64,000 bases of DNA. Origin: an uncultured Eubacteriales bacterium. Its GTDB lineage: Bacteria > Bacillota > Clostridia > Oscillospirales > Oscillospiraceae. This document shows, in pieces, positions 17,481-62,357 of this stretch (its first letter is position 1; every line of letters starts with the position of its first letter). The stretch lies in the NCBI GenBank assembly GCA_900549485.1, contig UROG01000002.1, positions 17,475 through 81,474 of the forward strand, written 5' to 3'. The position numbers and the translations under genes were made by a program. The notes under the pieces are model-generated. The model ran no database searches and had not been told where the DNA came from. It saw only the letters and a program-made list of their open reading frames with translations.

Positions 17481-19052
17481 TCAGTTTCTACTGAAATGCA
17501 GCTTTTTAAGTTGGTGGGGCTGTGGAGGCTCTGTATGAACACCAGAGGCAGAGCCGCTATCCCCTTTCAGAAACTCTGTGACAACACGATAATTATTGCC
17601 GTCTCCATCAGTGCCGGTGAAGTTGTACTCAATCTCTATCCGGTCATCCCATAGCCTGATGGCCTTTACCATAGTTCGGAGCAGTTCCTTGCGATAAGCT
17701 TGGTTGTCAGGCGTACCATTACGCAGCTTTTCTAAATAGAACCGCATACGTTCACCATCGACCGGCTCTTCAAACATGGCCTTTCCGAGAGCAATGCTTC
17801 TTTCAAGGTCGTGTATTTCCGTTTCCAGCTCTTGCATTCTTGCAGATGTTGTCTCATTGAATATGCCGGCTTCTATTGCTTTCATGATATTATCCAGCGC
17901 CTTTTTCCGGGATGAAAGCTCTTCCTCCATCACCGGCACATCCGATGTTTCCTGCGCTTGCTTTTTCAGCTCAATATATCCAGAAACAAGCCAGTCTGTC
18001 ACATCTGCCCGCGACAGGCAGGCGCGCGTCAGATCCACGACGAACTGCTCTATAAAATCCCTACGGACATTATGCTTTGTGCAGCCGTCATTCCCGCGGC
18101 TTTTACAGGTGTAATAGTAGTGAAGAGTTCCGTTCCGACTCGTCCCAGCATACCCGACCATGGGAGAGCCGCATTCCCCACAATATAGCTTGCCGGTAAG
18201 CAGATAATCAGAATTAGATTTGCGCTTTGCGCCCTCGCTATTTAGCCCTTCCTGAAGCTTACGTTGCACAGCGTAAAAAACCTCCTCACTTATTATCGCG
18301 GGAACACCGCCAACGACTCGTACACCAGAATGCTCATATATTCCGATGTATCTTTCGTTCCTCAGCATACGATTAAACGAGTTTTTGTTGAAAGGCTTAC
18401 GTGTTTTTGTTAGAATCCCTCTGTCGTTGAGACTGCGAATAATATCAGCATAGGGAACATCATCCACAACTTTGGAAAAGATCTCCCGCACTATTGCGGC
18501 GCGCGGCTCGTCAATGGCATATTTGCCATCCTCGCCTTTTTTATAACCATACGGGAGAGAACCGTTCACCTTGCACTCGGCGGCATTGTCTTTCAGCCCT
18601 CGCCTGATATCCTCGGCCATGTTCTCAGAATAAAACTGATTGACGTTCATCATTGTTCGCAAAGCAAAGCGGCCTGCCGCTGTGTTCCCAAACTCTTCTT
18701 TGGCATAGAGCGTTTTTATGCCAAAGCTATCGAGCCGGGATTCATATTGCAATGCATTCAGCATATTACGGGAAATTCGGTTAGACTTATAGGCAATCAC
18801 AACATCGAACTTGCGTTTTTCAGCATCGCGCATAAGCCGCTGAAACTCATTGCGCCGGTCAGTACGGCCAGAAATGGCTTTGTCTGCGTATATGCCAACA
18901 ACAGAAATGCCGGTGGTCACGGCAAAGGCTGTGCATTCCTCTATCTGCTGTTCTATACTTTCTTCTTTTTGGCTGTGAGAAGAATACCGCGCGTATATTA
19001 CACCGGTGATTATCAAATTGTCTGACTTCTTTTTATACTTCTGCGAAGCCAT
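17481..19052 (-). CDS. large serine recombinase (phage integrase)
   Basis: Resolvase-type N-terminal catalytic domain (VIYARYSSHSQ...RISR), recombinase domain, zinc-ribbon (CGECGSPM...C) and coiled-coil. AGGAGG RBS before the ATG at 19050-19052. The stop codon lies inside a hairpin. Confidence 0.85.
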   Translation of the reverse strand: MASQKYKKKSDNLIITGVIYARYSSHSQKEESIEQQIEECTAFAVTTGISVVGIYADKAISGRTDRRNEFQRLMRDAEKRKFDVVIAYKSNRISRNMLNALQYESRLDSFGIKTLYAKEEFGNTAAGRFALRTMMNVNQFYSENMAEDIRRGLKDNAAECKVNGSLPYGYKKGEDGKYAIDEPRAAIVREIFSKVVDDVPYADIIRSLNDRGILTKTRKPFNKNSFNRMLRNERYIGIYEHSGVRVVGGVPAIISEEVFYAVQRKLQEGLNSEGAKRKSNSDYLLTGKLYCGECGSPMVGYAGTSRNGTLHYYYTCKSRGNDGCTKHNVRRDFIEQFVVDLTRACLSRADVTDWLVSGYIELKKQAQETSDVPVMEEELSSRKKALDNIMKAIEAGIFNETTSARMQELETEIHDLERSIALGKAMFEEPVDGERMRFYLEKLRNGTPDNQAYRKELLRTMVKAIRLWDDRIEIEYNFTGTDGDGNNYRVVTEFLKGDSGSASGVHTEPPQPHQLKKLHFSRN

Positions 19053-19065
19053 ATAGCCTCCTTGC

Positions 19066-19686
19066 TCAGATGCCGAGCAACTGCTTCTTTTTGGCTGTAA
19101 ATTCTTCTTCGGTAAGCACACCTTCATCAACGAGCTGCTTGAGGGCGCGCAAATCATTTATTGTTGGAACCGCTATATCGGGCTGGCAAGCCGGAGCGGG
19201 ATTACTGTTCCAGTTGGCAACCTGCTTTTCGTAGATTCCTGCGAGTTCTGCGTATTCAGGCTTGTAGACTGCGGTCATTTCACTGCCGAACCCCACACCA
19301 AAGCCACCAATATCAACGAAAGAATCGCTCCCTTTCTTGAGCTTGATGGTTATCATTCCGTTTGACATGAACGAAGGTTTTTTGTTTGAGAAAGATGCGA
19401 TGCTTTGAATAGGTATAGTCGTGTTCTTTTTCTTTTCGATAAAAATCAAACTGCTGCTTGTCAACTTTAGTGCTTTCGGCGTAATGCAGGGAAGCTCGGG
19501 CAAATCTCCGGACGGGATTTTACTCGTGTGCGTGGCATATGCCCCCGCACTTTCTCCACGCGAAACACGTACAGCTTCCTCGCCAACGTAAATATGATCT
19601 GCCGCTCTTGCACACGCTTGACATAGTCCTTGCTTGGATATTTCTGCGGCCGAAATTCTTTTGCCGCACTTCTCACATATAGGCAT
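19066..19686 (-). CDS. zinc-ribbon / PH-like (DUF4429-like) / SHOCT-domain protein
   Basis: N-terminal CxxC...CxxC, central beta-rich region, C-terminal SHOCT-like LTEEEFTAKKKQLLGI. Located between the integrase and the repressor. Confidence 0.45.
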   Translation of the reverse strand: MPICEKCGKRISAAEISKQGLCQACARAADHIYVGEEAVRVSRGESAGAYATHTSKIPSGDLPELPCITPKALKLTSSSLIFIEKKKNTTIPIQSIASFSNKKPSFMSNGMITIKLKKGSDSFVDIGGFGVGFGSEMTAVYKPEYAELAGIYEKQVANWNSNPAPACQPDIAVPTINDLRALKQLVDEGVLTEEEFTAKKKQLLGI

Positions 19687-39909: not shown

Positions 39910-41649
39910 ATGATAAACCTCGAAGAGCTCCATGTCGCAAGCATCATCCAGTCGTCTAAAGCATTTCAGTTTGCAGCTGATGTCGTAAATGGGAAAATCA
40001 TATCCGGGAAACGCCGAAAGCAAGCCTGCCAGAGATTCATTGACGAACTTGAAAAATCGGCAGTTGACCCGTCATATCCATGGGAATTCAGCATTGAAAG
40101 AGCATACCGCCCGATAGAATTTATCGAGCGGTTTCTGACGCCGACAAAGAGCACGTATACGCGCATGGAACTGCTCCCGTGGCAGCATTTCGTTGAAGCC
40201 AATATGTACGGTTGGATATCCAGAAAAACAGGATATCGTAGATTCCGCGAAGCCCTCGTAATCGTTGGACAAGGAAATGGCAAATCTACCATGATAGCCG
40301 GGAATGCGGCGTATGCTCTTACGAAAGACGGTGAGCGCGGCGCTGAAGTCTATTGCTTGGCAAATTCAAAAGACCAAGCAAGGATTATTTTCAATGAGTG
40401 CTCAGCGCAGGTTAAAAACAGTCGGACTTTGTCTAAGCACGTTCGTATTACGAAGCAGGGCGTGTTTTATGATAAAACGAACAGCAAATTTCAGCCGCTC
40501 GCGTCCGACAGCAAAAACCTTGACGGTCGAAATGTGCACATGGGCGTTTTCGATGAAATACAAGAATTCCGCGATTATAAGCTGATTAACGTTATCAAAG
40601 GTAAAATTAAAAAGAGAAAACAGCCCTTGATAATATACATCACAACTCTTGGCACGGTTATTGATGGCCCACTGATGGATTTTTATATTCTCGGCGGTCA
40701 GATTCTCGACGACACGGGAGCTATTGCTCAGCGCGCCGCAGATCGCATGTTCGTTTATATCGATGAAATAGACGAAAATGACGACGTTGAAGATTATACC
40801 TGTTGGGGCAAAGCGAATCCCTCACTTGGAGCGTTGCTCGATATTGAGGACTTAAAAGACGAATGGGAACGAGTAAAAACCATTCCGAGCGAGAGAAACA
40901 ATTTCATAAATAAGCAGCTCAACGTGTTCACAATGGTGGATGAGTTGAGCTTTCTTGATGTAAGGACGATATGTAAGAACGACCGTGTATATGACGTTGA
41001 AAATTTGCATGGAGCGGTCTGCTACGGCGGATTTGACCTGGCAGAGACAGAAGATTTTACTTCAGCCTGTCTTGAGTTTCCTTTGCCCGATAACAGTTTC
41101 TTTGTGTTGGAGCATTCATGGGTACCCGAAAAGAAAGTAAAGTTTGACCATGAAAAGCTCGACTGGCAGACGCTCGTGGAGCGAGGCTGGCTTACCATAG
41201 TGCCGGGCGAATATGTGGACTATATCTACATTTTTGACTGGTTCGTTGAAATGCAGAAGCTTTACCGCATAGATTCTATTGGTTTTGACCCAGCAAAAGC
41301 GTTCATGATGGTACAGAAAATGCGAGAACACGGATTTGTCTTGAATGATGTACGTCAAGGCGAACTGACACTGACAGGACCGTTGGACGATCTCAAAGAA
41401 CACTTCCTCGATGGGAGCATAGTTCACAACAACAATGCCATGTTCAAATGGTATTTGAGCAATGTAAAGCTCACAAAGCGCTCGGCAAATGCCACATATC
41501 TTCCGACCAAGCTTTCAAAATACCGCAAAATTGACGGATTTGCGGCTTTGCTGGACGCTCACACGGAGTTTTTGCGCAAACATCCAACACAGATTCCACC
41601 AGACAAAGAATTGACCACGGTCATCAATTTACAGAATTTGAAGGGGTGA
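39910..41649 (+). CDS. phage terminase large subunit
   Basis: 579 aa. Walker A-like VIVGQGNGKST, Walker B MGVFDEIQEF, C-terminal RNaseH-like nuclease. Confidence 0.85.
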   Translation: MINLEELHVASIIQSSKAFQFAADVVNGKIISGKRRKQACQRFIDELEKSAVDPSYPWEFSIERAYRPIEFIERFLTPTKSTYTRMELLPWQHFVEANMYGWISRKTGYRRFREALVIVGQGNGKSTMIAGNAAYALTKDGERGAEVYCLANSKDQARIIFNECSAQVKNSRTLSKHVRITKQGVFYDKTNSKFQPLASDSKNLDGRNVHMGVFDEIQEFRDYKLINVIKGKIKKRKQPLIIYITTLGTVIDGPLMDFYILGGQILDDTGAIAQRAADRMFVYIDEIDENDDVEDYTCWGKANPSLGALLDIEDLKDEWERVKTIPSERNNFINKQLNVFTMVDELSFLDVRTICKNDRVYDVENLHGAVCYGGFDLAETEDFTSACLEFPLPDNSFFVLEHSWVPEKKVKFDHEKLDWQTLVERGWLTIVPGEYVDYIYIFDWFVEMQKLYRIDSIGFDPAKAFMMVQKMREHGFVLNDVRQGELTLTGPLDDLKEHFLDGSIVHNNNAMFKWYLSNVKLTKRSANATYLPTKLSKYRKIDGFAALLDAHTEFLRKHPTQIPPDKELTTVINLQNLKG

Positions 41650-41655
41650 TGTTCC

Positions 41656-42930
41656 TTGGGATTTAGGACAAGATTAAAAGAAAGGCGCCGCCAGCGGATA
41701 ATAAAGGCAGCGCTTGCGGAAGGACTGATGGTGCCAAGTCAGCAGGTAATACATAAATCGTGGCTGCCGCATTGGCTGAGAGGCGACTACACACTCAAAA
41801 ACAGCGAGTTGCTTTTTTCAGCGGTATCTCGCATTTCAAATTCGCTGTCGGCTATGCCTATTCAGCTTTATAAAGGGTCAATGCCAATGCATACCGACCT
41901 GAATGACCTGGTATCATTCAGCCCCAATCCAAATATGACAAGCTGCCAATTTTTCAAAACGCTTGAGGCGTGCCGAGATACGTCAGGCAATGCGTACGCG
42001 CTGAAAATTTTTTCAGTCAATGGCACAATCGAACGTCTGGACATACTCGACCCGTCAAGGGTACAGCCAATAATGGAGACAAACAGCCGAGAGCTTTGGT
42101 ACAGGATTACGCCAGAACAGGGAAAAGAGTTTTATGTACATGGATTCTATGTGATCCATGTACCTTTTATTTCTACGAATGGATACTCCGGTGTTAATCC
42201 TGTCTCTGTTCTCTATGACACGCTGAGTTATTCCGAAAACATTCAGACATTCAGCGTAAAGCAGCTCGATCAGGGCGTGAACGCAGCCATAGTTCTGGAA
42301 GCCCCGGCCAACCTCGGCGAGACCCAGAAGAAAACGATGGTCAAGTCTTTCATGGAAACCTACAAAGAAACCTCCGGCAATATTCTGCTGCTTGAATCTG
42401 GAGTTACGGCCAAAAGCCTGAATCTGTCTCCGGTCGATACAAAGCTCTTTGAGGTTGAAAAAATTACGCGCTCAAAGGTTGCAATGGTGTACAACATCCC
42501 GCCGCATTTGCTGGGAGACTACTCTGATACGTCGTTCACATCCCAAGAACAGCAGATGTTGGAGTTTTTAATGCTCACAATGCTGCCTATCGTGACTGCA
42601 TACGAGCAGGAGCTCAACAGAAAACTGCTCTCAAAGACGCAGAGGAAGAAAGGCTATCACTTCAAATTTGATATGGATGCCATACTCCGCGCCGACGCTG
42701 CTACACAGGCCGAAGTCGATTACAAGGCGGTGCGCTCCGCGTGGAAGACCCCGGATGAGATACGCCAGAACCGCAACCTGCCGCCGCTGCCGAACGGTAT
42801 CGGCAAAAAGGCTATGATTTCGCAGGACCTTGCAACGCTGGAGTATACCGTCAACCAGAAGCCATCTGTATTGGCAGGGGGGATTGCCCCCGATAAGCCG
42901 CCCACCCCGGACGATACCGGGGATGAATAA
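41656..42930 (+). CDS. phage portal protein (HK97 family)
   Basis: About 420 aa directly after terL. The start is TTG 41656 or ATG 41728. Confidence 0.8.
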   Translation: MGFRTRLKERRRQRIIKAALAEGLMVPSQQVIHKSWLPHWLRGDYTLKNSELLFSAVSRISNSLSAMPIQLYKGSMPMHTDLNDLVSFSPNPNMTSCQFFKTLEACRDTSGNAYALKIFSVNGTIERLDILDPSRVQPIMETNSRELWYRITPEQGKEFYVHGFYVIHVPFISTNGYSGVNPVSVLYDTLSYSENIQTFSVKQLDQGVNAAIVLEAPANLGETQKKTMVKSFMETYKETSGNILLLESGVTAKSLNLSPVDTKLFEVEKITRSKVAMVYNIPPHLLGDYSDTSFTSQEQQMLEFLMLTMLPIVTAYEQELNRKLLSKTQRKKGYHFKFDMDAILRADAATQAEVDYKAVRSAWKTPDEIRQNRNLPPLPNGIGKKAMISQDLATLEYTVNQKPSVLAGGIAPDKPPTPDDTGDE

Positions 42931-43018
42931 CGCTCGCAACCACGCTGAAAAGCGTGGATTTTTTATAGCCTGCTGTCTTTGCGAGGACAGCAAGAGACTG
43001 TGAGGAAGGAGGAAACGA

Positions 43019-43834
43019 ATGGAACGGATTGAAAAATTCAAGGGATTTCGCGTCAAAAAGGCCGATTCTGCTGCCGATATTGCGCTGATAAATCAGTTTG
43101 CTGTAAAAGAGCTGTCTCCCGATGACGTGTATTGTTTCTCACTCGTTCTCTGCGACAACGATGTTGACCGCGATACTGAACGCTTCACTGACCAGACATT
43201 GGAACGCCTTGCCAAGCTCTTTGTTGGTAAGACAGGCATAAGTGACCATGAATGGCGTGCAAGCGGCCAGATTGCTCGGATATACCGCACTGAAGTAGTT
43301 GCAACGGGAGAAAAAACGAAGCTGGGAGCACCTCTCAAACAGCTCCGCGCCAGCGCTTATATGGTTCGTAGTGATGCCACAAAGCCGATTGTTGATTCTA
43401 TTGATGCCGGCATTCTGAAAGAGATTTCTATCGGCTGCCGAGTGAAATCCTGCAACTGCTCGATCTGCAAGAAACCGCTGAAAATGAACTGGAGCACGTG
43501 GAAATACCAGTGCGAAACAGGCCATATCAAGGGAGAAACCTACCCTGAGGGGCTTTGTGTGGGTGATCTCGAAGATGCTGTTGACGCCTATGAATTCTCC
43601 TTCGTCGCTGTGCCGGCACAGAAAGGCGCGGGAGTCACAAAAAGTGTCGGTTGTGTTGACGACGCTTTTGAAGTGCTCATGTCTGCGGATCTCAGCGCGC
43701 ACAGTTGCAAGCTGAAAGCCCTTTTGCCGCGCATTCAGTCGGCTATGGCTGATGCGGCAGATCGCGAGGCAAGAGAAAAAATCCTCGCCGAAAACGAGAA
43801 ATATCTCAAAAATTTTGAAAAGGAGAAAAAGTAA
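43019..43834 (+). CDS. prohead maturation protease / scaffold
   Basis: Lies between portal and capsid. 271 aa, coiled-coil C-terminus. Confidence 0.5.
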   Translation: MERIEKFKGFRVKKADSAADIALINQFAVKELSPDDVYCFSLVLCDNDVDRDTERFTDQTLERLAKLFVGKTGISDHEWRASGQIARIYRTEVVATGEKTKLGAPLKQLRASAYMVRSDATKPIVDSIDAGILKEISIGCRVKSCNCSICKKPLKMNWSTWKYQCETGHIKGETYPEGLCVGDLEDAVDAYEFSFVAVPAQKGAGVTKSVGCVDDAFEVLMSADLSAHSCKLKALLPRIQSAMADAADREAREKILAENEKYLKNFEKEKK

Positions 43835-45000
43835 TGACTCTGTTTGAAATGAAAGAAAAGATGGCCACTCTTCAGGCGGCAATCGCGGCAGATGCGGCGT
43901 GGATCGCCGAAAAAGCTGCTGATGCATCGGTTTCGATGGAAGACATCACCGCAAAGAAAACTCATCGTGATGAGCTCCAGAACCGTTATGATATGCTCAA
44001 GTCCGAGCATGACGCGATGGAGGCTCGTCAGCGTGCAGATCTGGAGGTTCACGAAGCTGCTGTTCCGAAGACTGATAAAGAGCGCGGTATAAAGGCAAAG
44101 GCTGCCTTTTATCGTGCCGCCCTCACTAGGGGCAATGTCAAGAAAGCTTATGAAGGTCTCGGCGGCATTCCTGCAGATGATGCCGATTTGGGTCACGGCG
44201 ATAATCTTCTGCCGAACAACATCAGCAATGAGCTGCTGACTGAGCCCATAGAGAAGAACCCCCTGCGTCCTATTTGCCGTGTCACCAATATCACTGGCCT
44301 TGAAGAGCCGAAGCTGGGCTTTACTATCGATGATGCGGACATCGGCGATGTGACCGACAAGGAAACCGCGCATGAAATTGAAATGGACGGCGATACTGTG
44401 GCCTATGGCCGTCTGAAGATGAAGGTTTCTGCGACTGTCAAAGACACCGTCCTTCACGGTACTGACACCAATCTCGTAAGCGAGATAGACGAAAACCTCC
44501 GTTCCGCTCTGGCAATCCGTGAGAAGCACTTTGCTTTTCTTCCCGCAGCTACGTGCACGACTGATACTGCTCATGCGCACATGAGCTTCTACAACAAGGA
44601 GAGCAACAAGTCGGTAATTAAGGAAGTGGAGGGCGCAGACCTGTACAATGCCATTGTAAACGCCTATGCCGACCTTGCCGACGACTATGCAGCTAATGCA
44701 CGGGTCGTCATGAAGAAAGCCGACTACTATGGCATGATTGCTGCGCTGACCAACACTGCCGAGGCGTTGTTCACGGACAAGCCCGCAAAGATTCTCGGCA
44801 TTCCGGTTGTGTTCTGCGACAAGGCAACTGTTCCTGTCGTCGGCGATTTCACCTATTATGGCATCAACTATGACATTGGCGCCATCTATGAGACTGACAA
44901 GGATGCGAAGAAGGGCGAGTATTACTTCGTGTTTACCGCTTGGGGCGATCAGCAGATTCGTCTCAAGAGCGCGTTCCGTCTCGCAAAGGTAAACCCTTGA
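43834..45000 (+). CDS. major capsid protein (HK97 fold) with N-terminal delta domain
   Basis: 388 aa. Coiled-coil delta region followed by the capsid body. ATGA coupling to the upstream gene. Confidence 0.8.
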   Translation: MTLFEMKEKMATLQAAIAADAAWIAEKAADASVSMEDITAKKTHRDELQNRYDMLKSEHDAMEARQRADLEVHEAAVPKTDKERGIKAKAAFYRAALTRGNVKKAYEGLGGIPADDADLGHGDNLLPNNISNELLTEPIEKNPLRPICRVTNITGLEEPKLGFTIDDADIGDVTDKETAHEIEMDGDTVAYGRLKMKVSATVKDTVLHGTDTNLVSEIDENLRSALAIREKHFAFLPAATCTTDTAHAHMSFYNKESNKSVIKEVEGADLYNAIVNAYADLADDYAANARVVMKKADYYGMIAALTNTAEALFTDKPAKILGIPVVFCDKATVPVVGDFTYYGINYDIGAIYETDKDAKKGEYYFVFTAWGDQQIRLKSAFRLAKVNP

Positions 45001-45281
45001 GCGCGAACCTGTCGGGGCTGACGATTGGTTCGCTGACGCTGACACCGGCTTTTGATAAAAATGTCGTGTCATATACAGCCACAACCACAAACTCCACCAA
45101 CAAGGTAACGGCTACTGCGGAGGACAGCAAAGCCACAATCTCCATAAAGAACGGCGATACCGAAGTTGTGAATGGAGAAGCGGCAACATGGGCTGACGGT
45201 GAAAATGTGCTCACAGTAAAGGTCGTCAACGGCACCGCCAGCAAGACCTATACCGTCACCGTGACAAAAAGCGGAGGCTGA
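44997..45281 (+). CDS. cadherin-like (Ig-like) beta-sandwich domain ORF, possibly a -1 frameshift extension of the capsid protein
   Basis: LSANLSGLTIGSLTLTPAFDKNVVSYTATT...KTYTVTVTK matches the cadherin-like beta-sandwich repeat. It sits in the -1 frame relative to the MCP and overlaps the MCP's last 60 nt. Confidence 0.5.
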   Translation: MSANLSGLTIGSLTLTPAFDKNVVSYTATTTNSTNKVTATAEDSKATISIKNGDTEVVNGEAATWADGENVLTVKVVNGTASKTYTVTVTKSGG

Positions 45282-45286
45282 CAGTC

Positions 45287-45736
45287 ATGGCGGTAACTGT
45301 TGAAGATGTCATAAATCATATCGGCTTGCCGCCTGACCCTGCTGAATGGGATAACAGCACTGCCTATATCAACGGCAGTGCTGTTTCTCATAACGATTAT
45401 ATCTGGTGCTCTACCGCCGACGACAACATTACCGAGCCGGGCACGGCAAATGCGAAATGGATCGCAATCGGACAAACTGCCGCTTGCAAGGTTGCTCCGC
45501 ATTTGGCCGCTGCGAAATCTAAAGCGCGCACTGCCGGAATTCCGGCTTTTAAGAACAACGCTCAGTACGATTCTTTCATAAAGGATCTCGCAGCCATGTA
45601 CTACGATAACCGCGGAATGGCTTTCGGTGGCTCGTATCAGGCTACAGCCGAAGAGAATGCCCGGAAGATGATAAACGGTCATGTGCTTGAGCTGCGCTAT
45701 GCATCCGAAGATTCTGAGGACGGTGAGAATACGTGA
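45287..45736 (+). CDS. head-tail connector (gp6/gp15-like) protein
   Basis: Position after the capsid. N-terminus MAVTVEDVINHIGL resembles the DNA-packaging / head-tail connector family. Confidence 0.5.
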   Translation: MAVTVEDVINHIGLPPDPAEWDNSTAYINGSAVSHNDYIWCSTADDNITEPGTANAKWIAIGQTAACKVAPHLAAAKSKARTAGIPAFKNNAQYDSFIKDLAAMYYDNRGMAFGGSYQATAEENARKMINGHVLELRYASEDSEDGENT

Positions 45737-46089
45737 GCAAAAGTGCAAATGCCGGGGAGCTTCGTACCCCGGTTTTTTTCGTTCAAACGAAGCGCGATAC
45801 TGACGGCGAAGGTTATCCAGTCGTAAAAGATGTCAATATATTCGGGGACGGCGCATCTGTACTGTGCAAATGGGTCAATGCTCACGGCAGTGAAATGTTC
45901 TCGGCATTGCAACTGCAGCTCCGAGAGCCTGCAACTATAACCTGCCGATACTCCCCGCTTATCAACGAGCGTCTCGATGTGTACAAGGCCGGCGATTCCA
46001 TACCATACGAGATTATATCCATAGATAACGTTGAACAGCGAAACCTCTGGCTCGAAATCAAGGTACAGCGAAAGGAGGCAGCGCGGTAA
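45733..46089 (+). CDS. head closure / head-tail adaptor protein
   Basis: 118 aa, position and size. Confidence 0.5.
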   Translation: MSKSANAGELRTPVFFVQTKRDTDGEGYPVVKDVNIFGDGASVLCKWVNAHGSEMFSALQLQLREPATITCRYSPLINERLDVYKAGDSIPYEIISIDNVEQRNLWLEIKVQRKEAAR

Positions 46090-46445
46090 TGGATAATAAC
46101 AACAGCATAGATTCTCGCCTTGTGGACGCGCTGTCTGTATTTGATCTTGATGTTGAGCGGTCTGTTTATACAGGGCAGAGCAAAAAATACTTCGTTTTCA
46201 ACTACACTACCATCCCGGATGATTTTTCGGATGACGCGCCGGAACATGAACGGTATCTGATTCAGGTTCATCTGTTTGCCCCGCCGTTTGAGAAAAACAT
46301 CAATCCTATGGTCAAATCCATCAAAATTGCGCTGTATAACGCTGGATTCATATTCCCGGAAACGTTAGATGAAAGCGATGGCAATGGTCGTCACATTGTT
46401 TTTGAGACGGAGGATGCTGAGGGTATCGACTATGGCGAGCTTTGA
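46089..46445 (+). CDS. phage head-tail joining component
   Basis: 118 aa, synteny. Confidence 0.4.
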   Translation: MDNNNSIDSRLVDALSVFDLDVERSVYTGQSKKYFVFNYTTIPDDFSDDAPEHERYLIQVHLFAPPFEKNINPMVKSIKIALYNAGFIFPETLDESDGNGRHIVFETEDAEGIDYGEL

Positions 46446-46944: not shown

Positions 46945-47487
46945 ATGGCTGAATTTGGAGCAAAGTACCCTTGCTTTAAGGCTGATGGCAAGGATGCTGG
47001 CGTTGTGCTTGGCAAACTGGTTGCCGCAAATCTCACTGTAAATCTCGCCTCTGGTGAGCTTTACGCGGATGACGCTCTTGACGAGCAGCTTTCGGAGTTC
47101 GCAAGTGGCACGGTTGCCATGGAGACCAACGACCTGACAGACGAAAATGCAGCGGAAGTTTACGGCTGTGATGTTTCTGAAAAAGTCGTTACGTACAACG
47201 TAGGCGACACCGCCCCGTCTGGCAAACTTGCGTATTACAAGAGCCTTATGCGCAACAAGAAGAAATACTATAAGGGAATTCTTTATCCCTGCGCGAGAGC
47301 CGCGCTTGGCAATGACAACGCTCAGACCAAGGGCAGCTCTATTACTTTCGCAACCACGCAGACCACATTCACCATTATGGCGGATGAAAATGGTGATTGG
47401 CGAAAGACCGAGACTTTTGAAACTGAGGCAGAAGCAAAGACTTGGATCAATACTCAGTGCGCCATCGCAACGTCGCCGGGCGGCTGA
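46945..47487 (+). CDS. major tail protein
   Basis: 180 aa, precedes the chaperone pair. GGAG RBS. Confidence 0.55.
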   Translation: MAEFGAKYPCFKADGKDAGVVLGKLVAANLTVNLASGELYADDALDEQLSEFASGTVAMETNDLTDENAAEVYGCDVSEKVVTYNVGDTAPSGKLAYYKSLMRNKKKYYKGILYPCARAALGNDNAQTKGSSITFATTQTTFTIMADENGDWRKTETFETEAEAKTWINTQCAIATSPGG

Positions 47488-47550: not shown

Positions 47551-47961
47551 TTGTTGCCGGTGGACGCAATGATAAGCGCCGTAATAAACGGCAAAATAAG
47601 GCCTCTGCATTATTCGGTAGAGGTCATGTTTGAGATAAACCGACTATACGGGTCTGTGCAGGACGCGCTTGAACTGCTTCAAAAGCAGAACCGAGAGGGC
47701 TTCGCCTGTCTGCGGCAGCTCGTTGTTATGATGGCCAATGATGCGGAACTGTGCCGCCGTGCTGAGGGCTTTGATAAAAGTGATATGCTGTCAGAAACAG
47801 ATATTACAACGAGAATCCGTCCGGGTGTCCATTTGCACCTGATAGATGCGGTAATGCAAGCGATAACGCTTGGCTATAAGCAAGAGACCGCGAATGAATC
47901 TGAAACAGAAACTGATTTAGGGCTGCTTGAACTGCAAAAAAAAGAGGTAGCCGGGATCTGA
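47551..47961 (+). CDS. tail assembly chaperone (gpG-like); -1 frameshift product gpGT extends to 48110
   Basis: 136 aa, acidic C-terminus. A8G slippery run at 47936..47944. The -1 frame stays open to the TAG at 48108..48110. Confidence 0.55.
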   Translation: MLPVDAMISAVINGKIRPLHYSVEVMFEINRLYGSVQDALELLQKQNREGFACLRQLVVMMANDAELCRRAEGFDKSDMLSETDITTRIRPGVHLHLIDAVMQAITLGYKQETANESETETDLGLLELQKKEVAGI

Positions 47962-48122
47962 GGGCTGAATACACCTATTTTGCAACCGTGCAACTGCACC
48001 TTTCACGGATTGAATTCGGCCGGATGACCCCCGGCTTGTTTTTTGATATGGTGCAAATCTGGACAAAGGCAAATAGACCCCAAAAGTCCAGCAACGACAT
48101 TGATGATTAGCGAGGGCAGAGT

Positions 48123-51100
48123 ATGGCAACCAGAACAATTTCCACCCGCGTTGCGGTAGAGGGTGAAAGTCAGTACCGTGCCGCGATAACCGGGATAAAC
48201 GCTGAACTTCGCAATATGCAATCTGCTCTCAAAATGACAGAGAGCCAGTATAAAAATAATGCGACTTCAACAGAGGCGCTTACGGCCAAGGGCAAGGCAC
48301 TCAACGACTTGCTCGTAAGCCAGAAAAGCAAAGTATCCGCGCTTGAAGCTGGATTAAAAAATGCGCAAGAGGCTGAGCGCCAGTATGCCCAGCGAAAAGC
48401 GGAACTCAGTAAAAAGATAGAGGATAATGTCAAGGCCCTTGATGAACTGAAAAAGAAGTCTGGGGATACAAGCGCTGAAGAGAAAAAGCTGACCGAGGAG
48501 AATGAACGGCTCAACGCAGAACTCAGGAAGAATGAGGATTACCTAACTGCCGCAAAAAAGGCCGTTAACAACTGGCAGACAGATTTGAATAAGGCCAGGA
48601 CTGCCGTAAACGAGACCGAAGACGCCATACGTCAGAATTCGGCGGCGCTGGATAACAACAAGAGCAAAGTGCAGGGAAACACCGATGCTATCAACGGGCT
48701 TGCCCAGGCGTTGGCCGCATCGGGGTTGAAGCAATCCATACGTGAAATAGTGGAGGCATTGACGGAGTGTGTCGATGCCTCCGTTGAATTTGAGTCGGCA
48801 ATGGCCGGCGTCGCAAAAACAACGGACCTCACCGACAAAGAATTATCCACAATGGGAGGTCAGATAAAAGAGCTCTCAACTGATATTCCGATAACCGCAA
48901 AAGAACTGGCGGGCATAGTCGAGACCGCTGGACAGCTCGGCATAGAAAAAGAGAATCTTGTGTCATTTGCAACCGTCATGGCAGATCTCGGAGTTGCAAC
49001 AAATCTCACATCAGAGGAAGCAGCAACAATGCTTGCCAGATTTGCGAATGTGACAGGGATGGCACCGGAGCTGTATGAGAATCTGGGTTCTGTTATCGTA
49101 GATTTGGGAAACTCGTTTGCAACAACCGAATCCGAAATCGTAAATATGGGTCAGCGTCTCGCTGCTGCGGGTAAGCTGGCAGGGCTGACAGAGCCTGAAA
49201 TAATGGCTCTCGCAACAGCGATGTCCTCTGTTGGCATAGAAGCCGAGGCGGGCGGTACAGCAATGACGCAGACATTGACTGCGATTGAAAAAGCCGTGGC
49301 CGAGGGCGGCGATAGCCTTGCAAAGTTCGCGGATGTTTCCGGAATGTCGGCGGAGCAATTCGCCGCAGTGTGGCAGAATGAACCCATTACTGCAATTCAG
49401 GCGTTTATAGAGGGCCTTGGAAAGCTTGACGAAAAAGGCGAAAGCGCAACACTCGTGCTTGACGAGATGGGGCTTTCCGGCATTCGTCAGAGTAATATGC
49501 TGAAATCTCTTGCCACGGCATCAGGGCTGCTTTCCAATGCGGTAGACACGGCCAATACTGCATGGGCTGAGAACACCGCACTGATGAAAGAAGCATCCAC
49601 TCGATATGCGACCACAGAAAGCAAAATCACGATGTTTGAAAACAGCGTGAATAATCTCAAAATTGCCATAGGCGACCAGCTCACGCCCGCGATTGCTGAC
49701 CTTGCAACCAAGGGTACGGATATCGTCAAGTGGGCAACAGATTTCGTTCAAGCCAATGACTGGCTCGTTCCAACGATAACCGCTCTCACGGCAGGACTAA
49801 CTTCTTTCACTACAGTTTTAGCTTCATATATGGCAATTACTAAAGTGGTTATTCCTATCATAAAAGCATTCAATGCCGTCCTTATGGGGAATCCAGCGCT
49901 TGCGGTCGCCACGGCGGTAATCACGCTTGTATCGGCTATTGCAGCACTCGCGGCAGCTACACCGTCCGCTACAAAAGAGGCTGACGCTCTGAATGACACT
50001 CTTGACGATTGCAATAAAGCGTTTGAAGATGCGCGTAAGAATTTCACCGAAACCTCAGAAGAAATCGAAGCGACATCTATCGTAATCGCTAAACACATAG
50101 ACCGGCTCGACGAACTCAATTCAAAAACTGCGCTTACTAAAGAAGAGCAGGCCGAGTATAATTCCATAGTCAGCAGACTGCGTGAGCTGCTGCCAGATGT
50201 CAATATACAGATGGATGAGACTACTGGCAGACTGCAAACGACGACTGAGGAGCTGAGGCTTGGAGCTCAGGCGTGGAAAGAATATGCTCAAGAACAGGCT
50301 TTCGCTACAATAATTTCCGAACAGGAAGCCGCACTTACAGAGTTGCAGGTTGCACTCGCGAAAGCTCGCATAGAACTCACGAAATACAATGAATCTGCAA
50401 CTCAAGGCACATTAGATTTCGTCGCGGCTGCCAATGAGCAGAAAGCTGCACAGCAGGCATTGTCTGAAGCTCTTATAGAATCTAAAGGCAAGGAAACTGA
50501 GGCTGTTATTGCTGCCCGTGATGCTGAGGCTGACGCTTCTATGAAAGTAAGTGAGCTTTGGGCAAATCTCTCTGAGGAGGAAGCCAAAGCCGCTGAAGCA
50601 ATGCTCGCTTTGCAGGATAGTATTGCTGAAACAAGCGCAAAGGTCGATGAGCAGGCAAATATTCTGACTGAAACTCAGGCCATGGTAGACTCTTACAAGG
50701 AGAGTTTGACCGGTGCTGCGGAAACCTCGCAGCAGATGGCCGAGAGCATAAGCGATGCCAATGAGACGCTGAGCACGTTAGGCGATGGCGCTGGGGAGAG
50801 TATTGCGCAGGTGCCTGAGGCAACAGCTACGGCAATGGCTGAGACGAAAGCGCAGGTTGACAGCGCAAAACCTGAAATCACGGCAACGGTTACAGATATG
50901 GGCTTGCAGGCTGCTACTGGATATCAGGAGCAGCTTTCTAATATGGTTGATACGACCACACAGGTATTGTCGGATGTCAATCAGACTGTATCAGGCTATG
51001 CAAGCAGCGCATATAACGCCGGGTATGGCATAGGTGCTGCAATTTCTCAGGGAGCAGCGGTCGGCGTCAGAGCTTACGCCGCTCAGGTAGCAGCTGAAGC

Positions 51101-62281: not shown

Positions 62282-62357
<76 letters not shown>

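Follow-up and report, generated by a model that had tools for sequence, protein, structure and literature searches.

Immunoglobulin-like (Ig-like) domains added to the C termini of phage coat and tail proteins by frameshifting are well established, with examples in phages T3 (−1), A2 (−1), and PSA (+1) and in the coat proteins of A118 and A500 (−1), and the occurrence of in-frame and out-of-frame attachment has already been viewed as a product of domain shuffling (PMC5009743). Here, we focused on the 3′ end of a major capsid protein gene from an uncultured Eubacteriales bacterium (Bacillota; Clostridia; Oscillospirales; Oscillospiraceae), behind which an Ig-like domain is encoded in the −1 frame. 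The gene is part of a stretch of 64,000 nucleotides (assembly GCA_900549485.1, contig UROG01000002.1, positions 17,475 to 81,474 of the forward strand), referred to as the window here, and all coordinates count from its first letter. We consider it very likely that a programmed −1 frameshift at this junction makes a fusion of the capsid protein and the Ig-like domain. A preliminary description of the window had proposed such a frameshift and had pointed to documented precedents for it; the precedents are those named above, and the proposal is supported by a conserved heptamer, a covarying hairpin, the general lack of a start codon and ribosome-binding site for the domain, and in-frame fusions in relatives. 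The features of the junction are as follows.

43834..45000, + strand: major capsid protein gene, 0 frame, HK97 type, 388 amino acids (open reading frame [ORF], PF05065, PHROG 10)
44991..44997, + strand: slippery heptamer A_AAC_CCU, an X_XXY_YYZ pattern in the 0-frame register (sequence, conservation)
44998..45000, + strand: stop codon of the 0 frame (TGA), immediately after the heptamer (sequence)
44997..45281, + strand: −1 frame extension of 94 codons (LSANLSGLTIGSL...VTVTKSGG) plus the stop codon at 45279..45281 (PF12733, AlphaFold2)
45003..45033, + strand: putative stimulatory hairpin with a 7-bp stem, GCGAACC (45003..45009)/GGUUCGC (45027..45033), and a 17-nt loop (RNAalifold, covariation)
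45076..45080, + strand: tentative pseudoknot partner CAGCC for the loop segment GGCUG at 45016..45020 (covariation, swap test)

The arrangement resembles that of Lactobacillus phage A2 (gp5A/gp5B), where a −1 shift shortly before the end of the head gene likewise yields a second capsid component extended by an Ig-like domain (PMC5009743). The two differ in that the window has the heptamer A_AAC_CCU, an adjacent stop codon, a PF12733 domain, and a probable host among the Oscillospiraceae/Clostridia instead of Lactobacillus, and while the A2 products are proven at the protein level, those of the present element are predicted. The A2 heptamer is reportedly of the C_CCA_AAA type, and a downstream stem-loop is said to be involved there (Garcia et al. 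2004). Late −1 shifts that supply a minor, longer coat protein to a subset of subunits are also known from 10A/10B of coliphage T3 and of T7 (PMC5009743); the extension is Ig-like in T3 (PMC5009743) but not in T7, and both are podoviruses whose capsid gene lies in an unrelated context and whose shift site differs and does not adjoin the stop codon. The Listeria phages A118 and A500 (−1) and PSA (+1) are, like the phage described here, temperate Firmicutes siphoviruses in which recoding at the 3′ end gives long and short forms of structural proteins (PMC5009743). The shift sites of these phages include proline codons that adjoin a stop (CCC_UGA) or precede a pseudoknot (PMC5009743), but the stop-adjacent proline sites shift in the +1 direction, whereas the predicted shift in the window is −1 (C_CCU to CCC) with an upstream A_AA. 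Lambda gpV and phi29 gp8 carry a comparable small C-terminal β-sandwich on a tail-tube and a capsid protein, but there it is encoded in frame, while the domain in the window can be reached only by recoding and belongs to PF12733, not to Big_2. The picture of a “promiscuous Ig-like domain” of phage structural proteins is said to go back to Fraser et al. 2006. As in the class formed by T3, A2, A118, and A500, an out-of-frame Ig-like domain follows a structural gene in the window, and in-frame homologs are found elsewhere: in the present clade, the window carries the domain out of frame behind its capsid gene, and relatives have it in frame on the capsid protein (P0022 and P0072) or the tail tube (L001, L004, and L021). 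When we searched cultured phage genomes with positions 43000..46100 at the DNA level, no match was found, and a protein search of the same collection returned only the capsid part, at ∼57% identity, from Staphylococcus and Paenibacillus phages, so that the collection searched holds no cultured-phage record of the capsid-plus-domain arrangement.

The capsid ORF matches PF05065 (Phage_capsid) with an E value of 2.9e-14 and 53.6 bits (cutoff, 24.2) and positions 263-635 of PHROG 10 (“major head protein”) with an E value of 3.7e-40; a profile match above the curated threshold and a position in a head module identify it as an HK97-fold major capsid protein. Its 3′ end (44986..45000) reads AAG GTA AAC CCT TGA, and the short product ends in ...AFRLAKVNP. 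The −1 frame is open from ∼44898 to the stop codon at 45279..45281; from the heptamer onward, its translation is K P L S A N L S G L T I G S L, with 96 codons to 45281 when counted from AAA at 44991 and 94 when counted from TTG at 44997. The preliminary description had given the same 3′ end, the same in-register heptamer with its immediately following stop codon, and the same −1 reading, all of which hold, as does its assignment of the encoded domain to the cadherin-like fold. The 94-residue extension matches PF12733 (Cadherin-like) with an E value of 4e-8 and 34.0 bits (gathering score, 24.2), and its AlphaFold2 model is an all-β sandwich of eight strands with a mean predicted local distance difference test score (pLDDT) of 96.4. 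The best match of this model in the PDB is 8yk1_A (template modeling [TM] score, 0.84; root mean square deviation, 2.0 Å), an accessory domain of the blood-group-B galactosidase of Bifidobacterium bifidum, followed by many weaker Ig-like matches, which include Ig domains of titin and Robo, the C-terminal domain of lambda gpV, and the phi29 prohead. By profile and predicted structure, the extension is thus a cadherin-like/Ig-like β-sandwich. It also matches positions 666-740 in the C-terminal part of the PHROG 10 profile, downstream of the positions covered by the capsid ORF, so that some members of this family carry the domain in one polypeptide.

To compare the junction with those of relatives, we ran a protein search with the hypothetical trans-frame product as the query. 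This returned hundreds of capsid proteins of ∼390 amino acids, with 57-97% identity to that of the window. From genomes, metagenomes, and viral contigs, 173 related loci were retrieved, and 104 distinct capsid-gene ends remained after removal of duplicates; the genome-derived loci come from metagenome-assembled genomes of Oscillospiraceae, Ruminococcaceae, and Clostridia, and several of the metagenome contigs are labeled human gut or bioreactor. The domain is found behind the capsid gene in 63 of the 104 junctions, each time shifted to the −1 frame at the stop codon of the capsid gene, with no case of a +1 or in-frame arrangement in this set. These loci stem from independent assemblies, and the identity of their capsid proteins goes down to 56%. 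Downstream of the stop codon, the column entropies at the first, second, and third codon positions of the −1 frame are 0.57, 0.51, and 1.18 bits. Third positions are thus about twice as variable as the other two, the pattern of translated sequence, indicating that the −1 frame is under constraint at the protein level. The remaining 41 junctions lack this domain, and most of them run directly into the next gene, which has an AGGAGG and an ATG. Some of these 41 ends (L157, L141, L063, L074, L135, L142, L158, and L171) carry a different Ig-like domain of ∼100 amino acids (...YxWQ...FRC...) fused in frame. In L087, with a capsid stop at 436, a different domain of ∼130 amino acids lies in the −1 frame after ACC CCT TGA, and in L092 an Ig-like repeat is apparently split by a frame change within the domain.

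The protein search also revealed natural in-frame fusions of PF05065 and PF12733 of 479-484 amino acids (P0022, P0064, P0069, P0071, and P0072), whose C-terminal domains are 54-62% identical to the extension and whose junction aligns with the predicted one (for example, ...AFRLAAVSPSGDLASLTIGSL... versus ...AFRLAKVNPLSANLSGLTIGSL...). The two whose loci were inspected, P0022 and P0072 (L174 and L175), have neither the heptamer nor the stop codon, so that the in-frame fusions act as natural controls that support the frameshift. Furthermore, the major tail protein in L001 (5966-6787), L004 (5998-6825), and L021 (2540-3388) carries the same cadherin-like domain fused in frame at its C terminus, while its homolog in the window, the tail tube protein (46945..47487), is devoid of it. 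To judge from this distribution, the cadherin-like domain moves between capsid and tail proteins.

Across the 63 domain-bearing loci, the stop codon always adjoins the shift motif, and 53 of them, representing 27 clusters at 85% identity, share the pattern NNA AAC CCT followed immediately by a stop. The overlap in the −1 frame, whose conservation along with that of the heptamer the preliminary description had suggested checking in homologs, is present in all 63. In the 53 heptamer loci, the stop is TAA in 40, TGA in 10, and TAG in 3. The codon before AAC is GTA, GCA, TCA, ACA, or GAA, standing for five amino acids, but its final A is present in 53/53, and the asparagine codon is AAC, never AAT. 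Elsewhere in the same genes, CCT accounts for 17% of the proline codons and GTA for 9% of the valine codons, and only 7.8% of third positions are A. The invariance of NNA AAC CCT despite these locally rare codons shows selection on the nucleotides A_AAC_CCU themselves, and the heptamer is conserved beyond the needs of the encoded protein. In random sequence, the chance of an in-register X_XXY_YYZ pattern at one fixed position is ∼1/256; combined with 93 open codons and the recurrence in 63 loci, this makes the arrangement more than chance. In several loci, the −1 frame opens just 16-37 nt before the stop codon, which places the change of frame within the last few codons. Measurements in Escherichia coli identified C_CC.U as one of six shift-prone tetramers (PMC4066793), whereas A_AA.C_CC.A was one of three heptamers that stayed below threshold even with a strong pseudoknot (PMC4066793), a ranking that fits the invariant CCT codon. 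A literature search for the A_AAC_CCU heptamer in phages found nothing relevant.

A spacer of 5 nt separates the heptamer from the stem of the hairpin, and the local fold of the window sequence around this stem has a free energy of −18.8 kcal/mol and a z score of −2.7. Significance is limited to this local hairpin, since a longer fold of 126 nt reached a z score of only −1.3. RNAalifold, applied to 44 distinct junction sequences, predicted exactly this 7-bp stem. In the alignment, 95.8% of the stem cells are paired, compared with 27-48% when the partner strand is slid by one to three columns. The two central pairs occur as AU 19, GU 13, CG 5, and UA 1 in one case and as AU 29, GC 8, CG 2, UA 1, and GU 1 in the other. 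Over the whole tested structure, changes on both sides of a pair were found in 17 cells versus 4.6 expected, a level of covariation reached by 0 of 500 shuffles. Compensatory variants of the stem include GCGCGCC/GGCGCGC, GCGAGCC/GGCUCGC, GCGCUCC/GGAGCGC, and GCGUCCC/GGGACGC. Given that these variants alter the residues encoded by both arms (A-N-L and G-S-L in the window), conservation of the protein does not explain them. Where the domain is encoded in frame on a capsid or tail protein, only 2-5 of the seven stem pairs are retained. Where the junction is followed by an unrelated linker (L140, L029, L172, L125/L127, L103, and L087), each linker forms a different strong hairpin, whose start lies 3-6 nt downstream from the first base of the stop codon. 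The hairpin of L103 is a perfect 11-bp stem, GCGGGCCAUUC/GAAUGGCCCGC.

The preliminary description had called for a search for a stem-loop or pseudoknot downstream of the heptamer. While the stem-loop was found, the pseudoknot stays tentative. The loop segment GGCUG could pair with CAGCC 56 nt further downstream and extend the hairpin into a long-range pseudoknot. In the alignment, 90% of the cells of this helix are paired, and three of its five pairs show changes on both sides, although in only four sequence-by-pair cells; a test in which loops and downstream segments were swapped gave p = 0.02. The in-register changes are G-C to C-G and G-C to A-U, with compensatory examples in L123 and L137, while the L086 group, L016, L143, and L160 show register-shifted complementarity between loop and downstream segment. 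Since the CAGCC region also encodes conserved residues and compensatory events are few, we regard this helix as a tentative candidate. Within the loop, a possible inner helix (45011..45014/45022..45025) is conserved but shows almost no covariation. Neither the inner helix GUC/GAC, in which 70% of the cells are paired, nor the alternative GUCG/CGAU is claimed here, as only one cell has changes on both sides.

Taken together, these elements suggest how one message could give rise to two capsid proteins. Most ribosomes would end at the TGA at 44998..45000 and release the 388-amino-acid protein, while a fraction would slip back by one base on A_AAC_CCU, so that tRNA-Asn exchanges AAC for AAA and tRNA-Pro re-pairs with CCC instead of CCU. 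This would be promoted by the hairpin at 45003..45033, possibly extended to a pseudoknot, and the adjacent stop codon probably helps. Base 44997 would then be read twice, and UUG (Leu), AGC, GCG, and the following codons would be decoded in the −1 frame up to 45281, resulting in a product of 482 amino acids, join(43834..44997,44997..45281), with the junction ...AKVNP-LSANL.... The junction AKVN-KPLSANL, expected in the preliminary description, should be corrected accordingly: the slipped tRNAs already carry Asn and Pro, and the tryptic junction peptide of the frameshift product would be VNPLSANLSGLTIGSLTLTPAFDK. Both forms would enter the HK97-type shell, and a subset of the subunits would show the domain on the outer surface. 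In this scheme we infer the slippage and its efficiency, the choice between a tandem and a single-tRNA slip, the presence of the long form in virions, and what the domain does there.

Several observations weigh against this scheme or restrict its reach. The slip and its efficiency are deduced from comparative sequence data, the C-rich A-site codon is not that of a classical high-efficiency slippery site, and the stem overlaps coding sequence, so that its conservation partly reflects the protein; in addition, a few heptamer loci (L037 and L114) lack the 7-bp stem. A tandem slip also does not cover every member of the clade, as G_GAC_CCT plus a stop takes the place of the heptamer in three relatives and NNG GGG GAA plus TAA or TGA in eight (L004, L029, L103, L115, L125, L127, L161, and L172), the latter motif not being of the X_XXY_YYZ type. 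The overlapping −1 codon of these eight loci is ATA, no start codon, where the stop is TAA and ATG where it is TGA, and their junction may use a slip on G_GGG, a tRNA-Glu slip assisted by the stop, or, where the codon is ATG, coupled initiation. One of them, L103, has a −1 ORF of only 60 amino acids with no recognizable Ig-like domain. These variants bear on another route to the −1 frame, a slip of a single tRNA, which we regard as unlikely: with the stop codon in the A site, slow termination would leave peptidyl-tRNA-Pro, bound to CCU in the P site, time to re-pair on CCC. The signal could then not do without the adjacent stop, and the A_AA would be secondary. This would account for the stop adjoining the motif in 63/63 loci even though its identity changes. 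The three G_GAC_CCT loci and L087 (ACC CCT TGA) preserve C_CCT with a following stop, although their sequence does not permit tandem re-pairing; nor does the class with G_GGG_GAA and a stop have a tandem heptamer. C_CC.U is moreover shift prone as a tetramer in E. coli (PMC4066793), and stop-adjacent proline sites are used in Listeria phages, albeit in the +1 direction (PMC5009743). What a single-tRNA slip leaves unaccounted for is the A before AAC in 53/53 loci across five otherwise rare codons, which only re-pairing of tRNA-Asn on AAA explains, and the invariance of AAC over AAT. The two routes may also coexist. A version in which the adjacent stop is a working part of the signal, with termination pausing driving the −1 slip alongside tandem slippage and a long-range pseudoknot as the −1 counterpart to the +1 CCC_UGA sites of Listeria phages, and in which G_GGG_GAA plus a stop is a second stop-assisted solution, strikes us as possible but doubtful; if it were true, the clade would provide a natural series in which to take apart stop-assisted −1 frameshifting in Firmicutes, from heptamer to variant motif, in-frame fusion, and absence of the domain.

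A programmed frameshift of either kind has to be weighed against the idea that the Ig-like ORF is a separate gene, started at TTG 44997 by termination coupling at the TGA and giving a free 94-residue protein that decorates the capsid noncovalently. The preliminary description had kept this alternative, and the two elements on which it rested do exist, as TTG 44997 overlaps the stop codon (TTGA) and is preceded by AAAGG 7 nt upstream; with this TTG and the weak upstream AAGG, some coupled initiation is possible in this lineage, a further point against a pure frameshift. A start codon is also found at or near the junction in 19 of the 63 relatives, including the ATGA overlaps of the G_GGG_GAA class. 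The TTG is, however, an automatic by-product of CCT plus TGA, and the TAA or TAG of 43 of the 53 heptamer loci turns it into TTA, which is no start. No ATG, GTG, or TTG occurs within 30 nt of the junction in 44 of the 63 loci, and the open −1 stretch of most of these contains none at all. The predicted duplex with the anti-Shine-Dalgarno sequence has a median energy of −1.9 kcal/mol at the junctions versus −2.5 kcal/mol at random positions of the capsid genes, and the −4.0 kcal/mol at the window junction is equaled or beaten by 27% of such positions. Real starts look different: the next gene in the window reaches −10.0 kcal/mol, with medians of −11.8 kcal/mol for the gene after the domain and, in relatives without the domain, −10.9 kcal/mol for the gene that follows the capsid gene. 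A conserved start codon and ribosome-binding site for a separate domain gene were therefore not found among the 63 domain-bearing junctions, and with no start in most loci and Shine-Dalgarno signals at background level, independent initiation is not the general route to the domain. Homologs with a separate Ig-like ORF, its own strong ribosome-binding site, and no heptamer would have favored a separate gene; the opposite was observed, with the heptamer kept and the ribosome-binding site missing. A separate gene also leaves the invariant rare-codon heptamer and the covarying stem unexplained, and relatives join the domain covalently to a capsid or tail-tube protein, which together make this alternative highly improbable. 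Even less credible is a decayed or misassembled in-frame fusion whose domain is no longer made. In-frame fusions are known in relatives, and an indel or sequencing error of a single base would produce the same relation of frames, but 63 distinct junctions, drawn from independent assemblies, share the arrangement, the −1 frame runs on for more than 90 codons without a stop and with third positions twice as variable as the first and second, and the elements of the signal are conserved beyond the needs of the protein.

Other mechanisms were considered and rejected. The AAGG that ends one base before the heptamer could be taken for a Shine-Dalgarno-like stimulator but is absent in most relatives. 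Transcriptional slippage would have to act on runs no longer than AAA and CCC, and readthrough of the stop codon does not lead to the domain, which is in another frame. A +1 frameshift at CCC_UGA, as in the tail-shaft type of Listeria phages PSA and A118, disagrees with the −1 position of the extension in 63/63 loci and with the codon itself, which is CCT and preceded by C.

The capsid gene is embedded in a phage structural region with the order terminase, portal, 271-amino-acid ORF, capsid gene, head-completion genes, tail tube, chaperone, and tape measure. The neighboring features are as follows.

39910..41649: terminase, head module
41656..42930: portal, head module
43019..43834: 271-amino-acid ORF of unknown function (PHROG 16951), directly before the capsid gene
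45287..45736, + strand: next head gene after the domain, with its own GGAGG (45273..45277) and ATG
46945..47487: tail tube, 180 amino acids
48123..51518: tape measure

Between the tail tube and the tape measure, the gene of the tail assembly chaperone (47551..47961) contains a canonical −1 heptamer, A_AAA_AAA, at 47937..47943, inside CAAAAAAAAG. From there, the −1 frame runs to a stop at 48108..48110, just before the tape measure gene at 48123, in the classical G/GT manner. The phage thus appears to use −1 recoding twice, in the capsid and in the tail chaperone gene, and we count the canonical site in favor of the capsid frameshift. The left part of the window (1..∼17400) apparently consists of host genes and is followed by the phage modules. 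A 558-amino-acid ORF at 17481..19157 (− strand) might encode a recombinase, and a tRNA-Ala (GGC) gene lies near the right end of the window (62282..62357, − strand). Two viral contigs of 36-38 kb (L005 and L007) are near-identical to the phage in the window.

The element is a well-supported fresh example of an established phage mechanism and, as such, no surprise to the specialist. Distinctive are the A_AAC_CCU heptamer and the always-adjacent stop codon, both modestly unusual, as well as the covariation of the hairpin and the wide spread of the arrangement within the clade. The clade offers a −1 signal supported by covariation, with a C-rich A-site codon, an obligatorily adjacent stop, and natural in-frame controls, and is a good natural system in which to study stop-adjacent −1 recoding. 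Gene callers split the locus into a 388-amino-acid capsid protein and an orphan ORF, or nothing, whereas the correct feature would be the join(43834..44997,44997..45281), and the same fix to the annotation applies to a large clade of uncultured phages of Clostridia from gut and rumen, represented here by 63 distinct junctions. In gut phages, this class of domain has been associated with attachment to glycans, mucus, or epithelia (PMC13370021, PMC8008677). For the phage in the window, the arrangement suggests that the virion probably displays a substoichiometric Ig-like domain; like the Ig-like domains of other phages, for which such a role has been proposed, it might help the phage adhere to glycans or cell surfaces.

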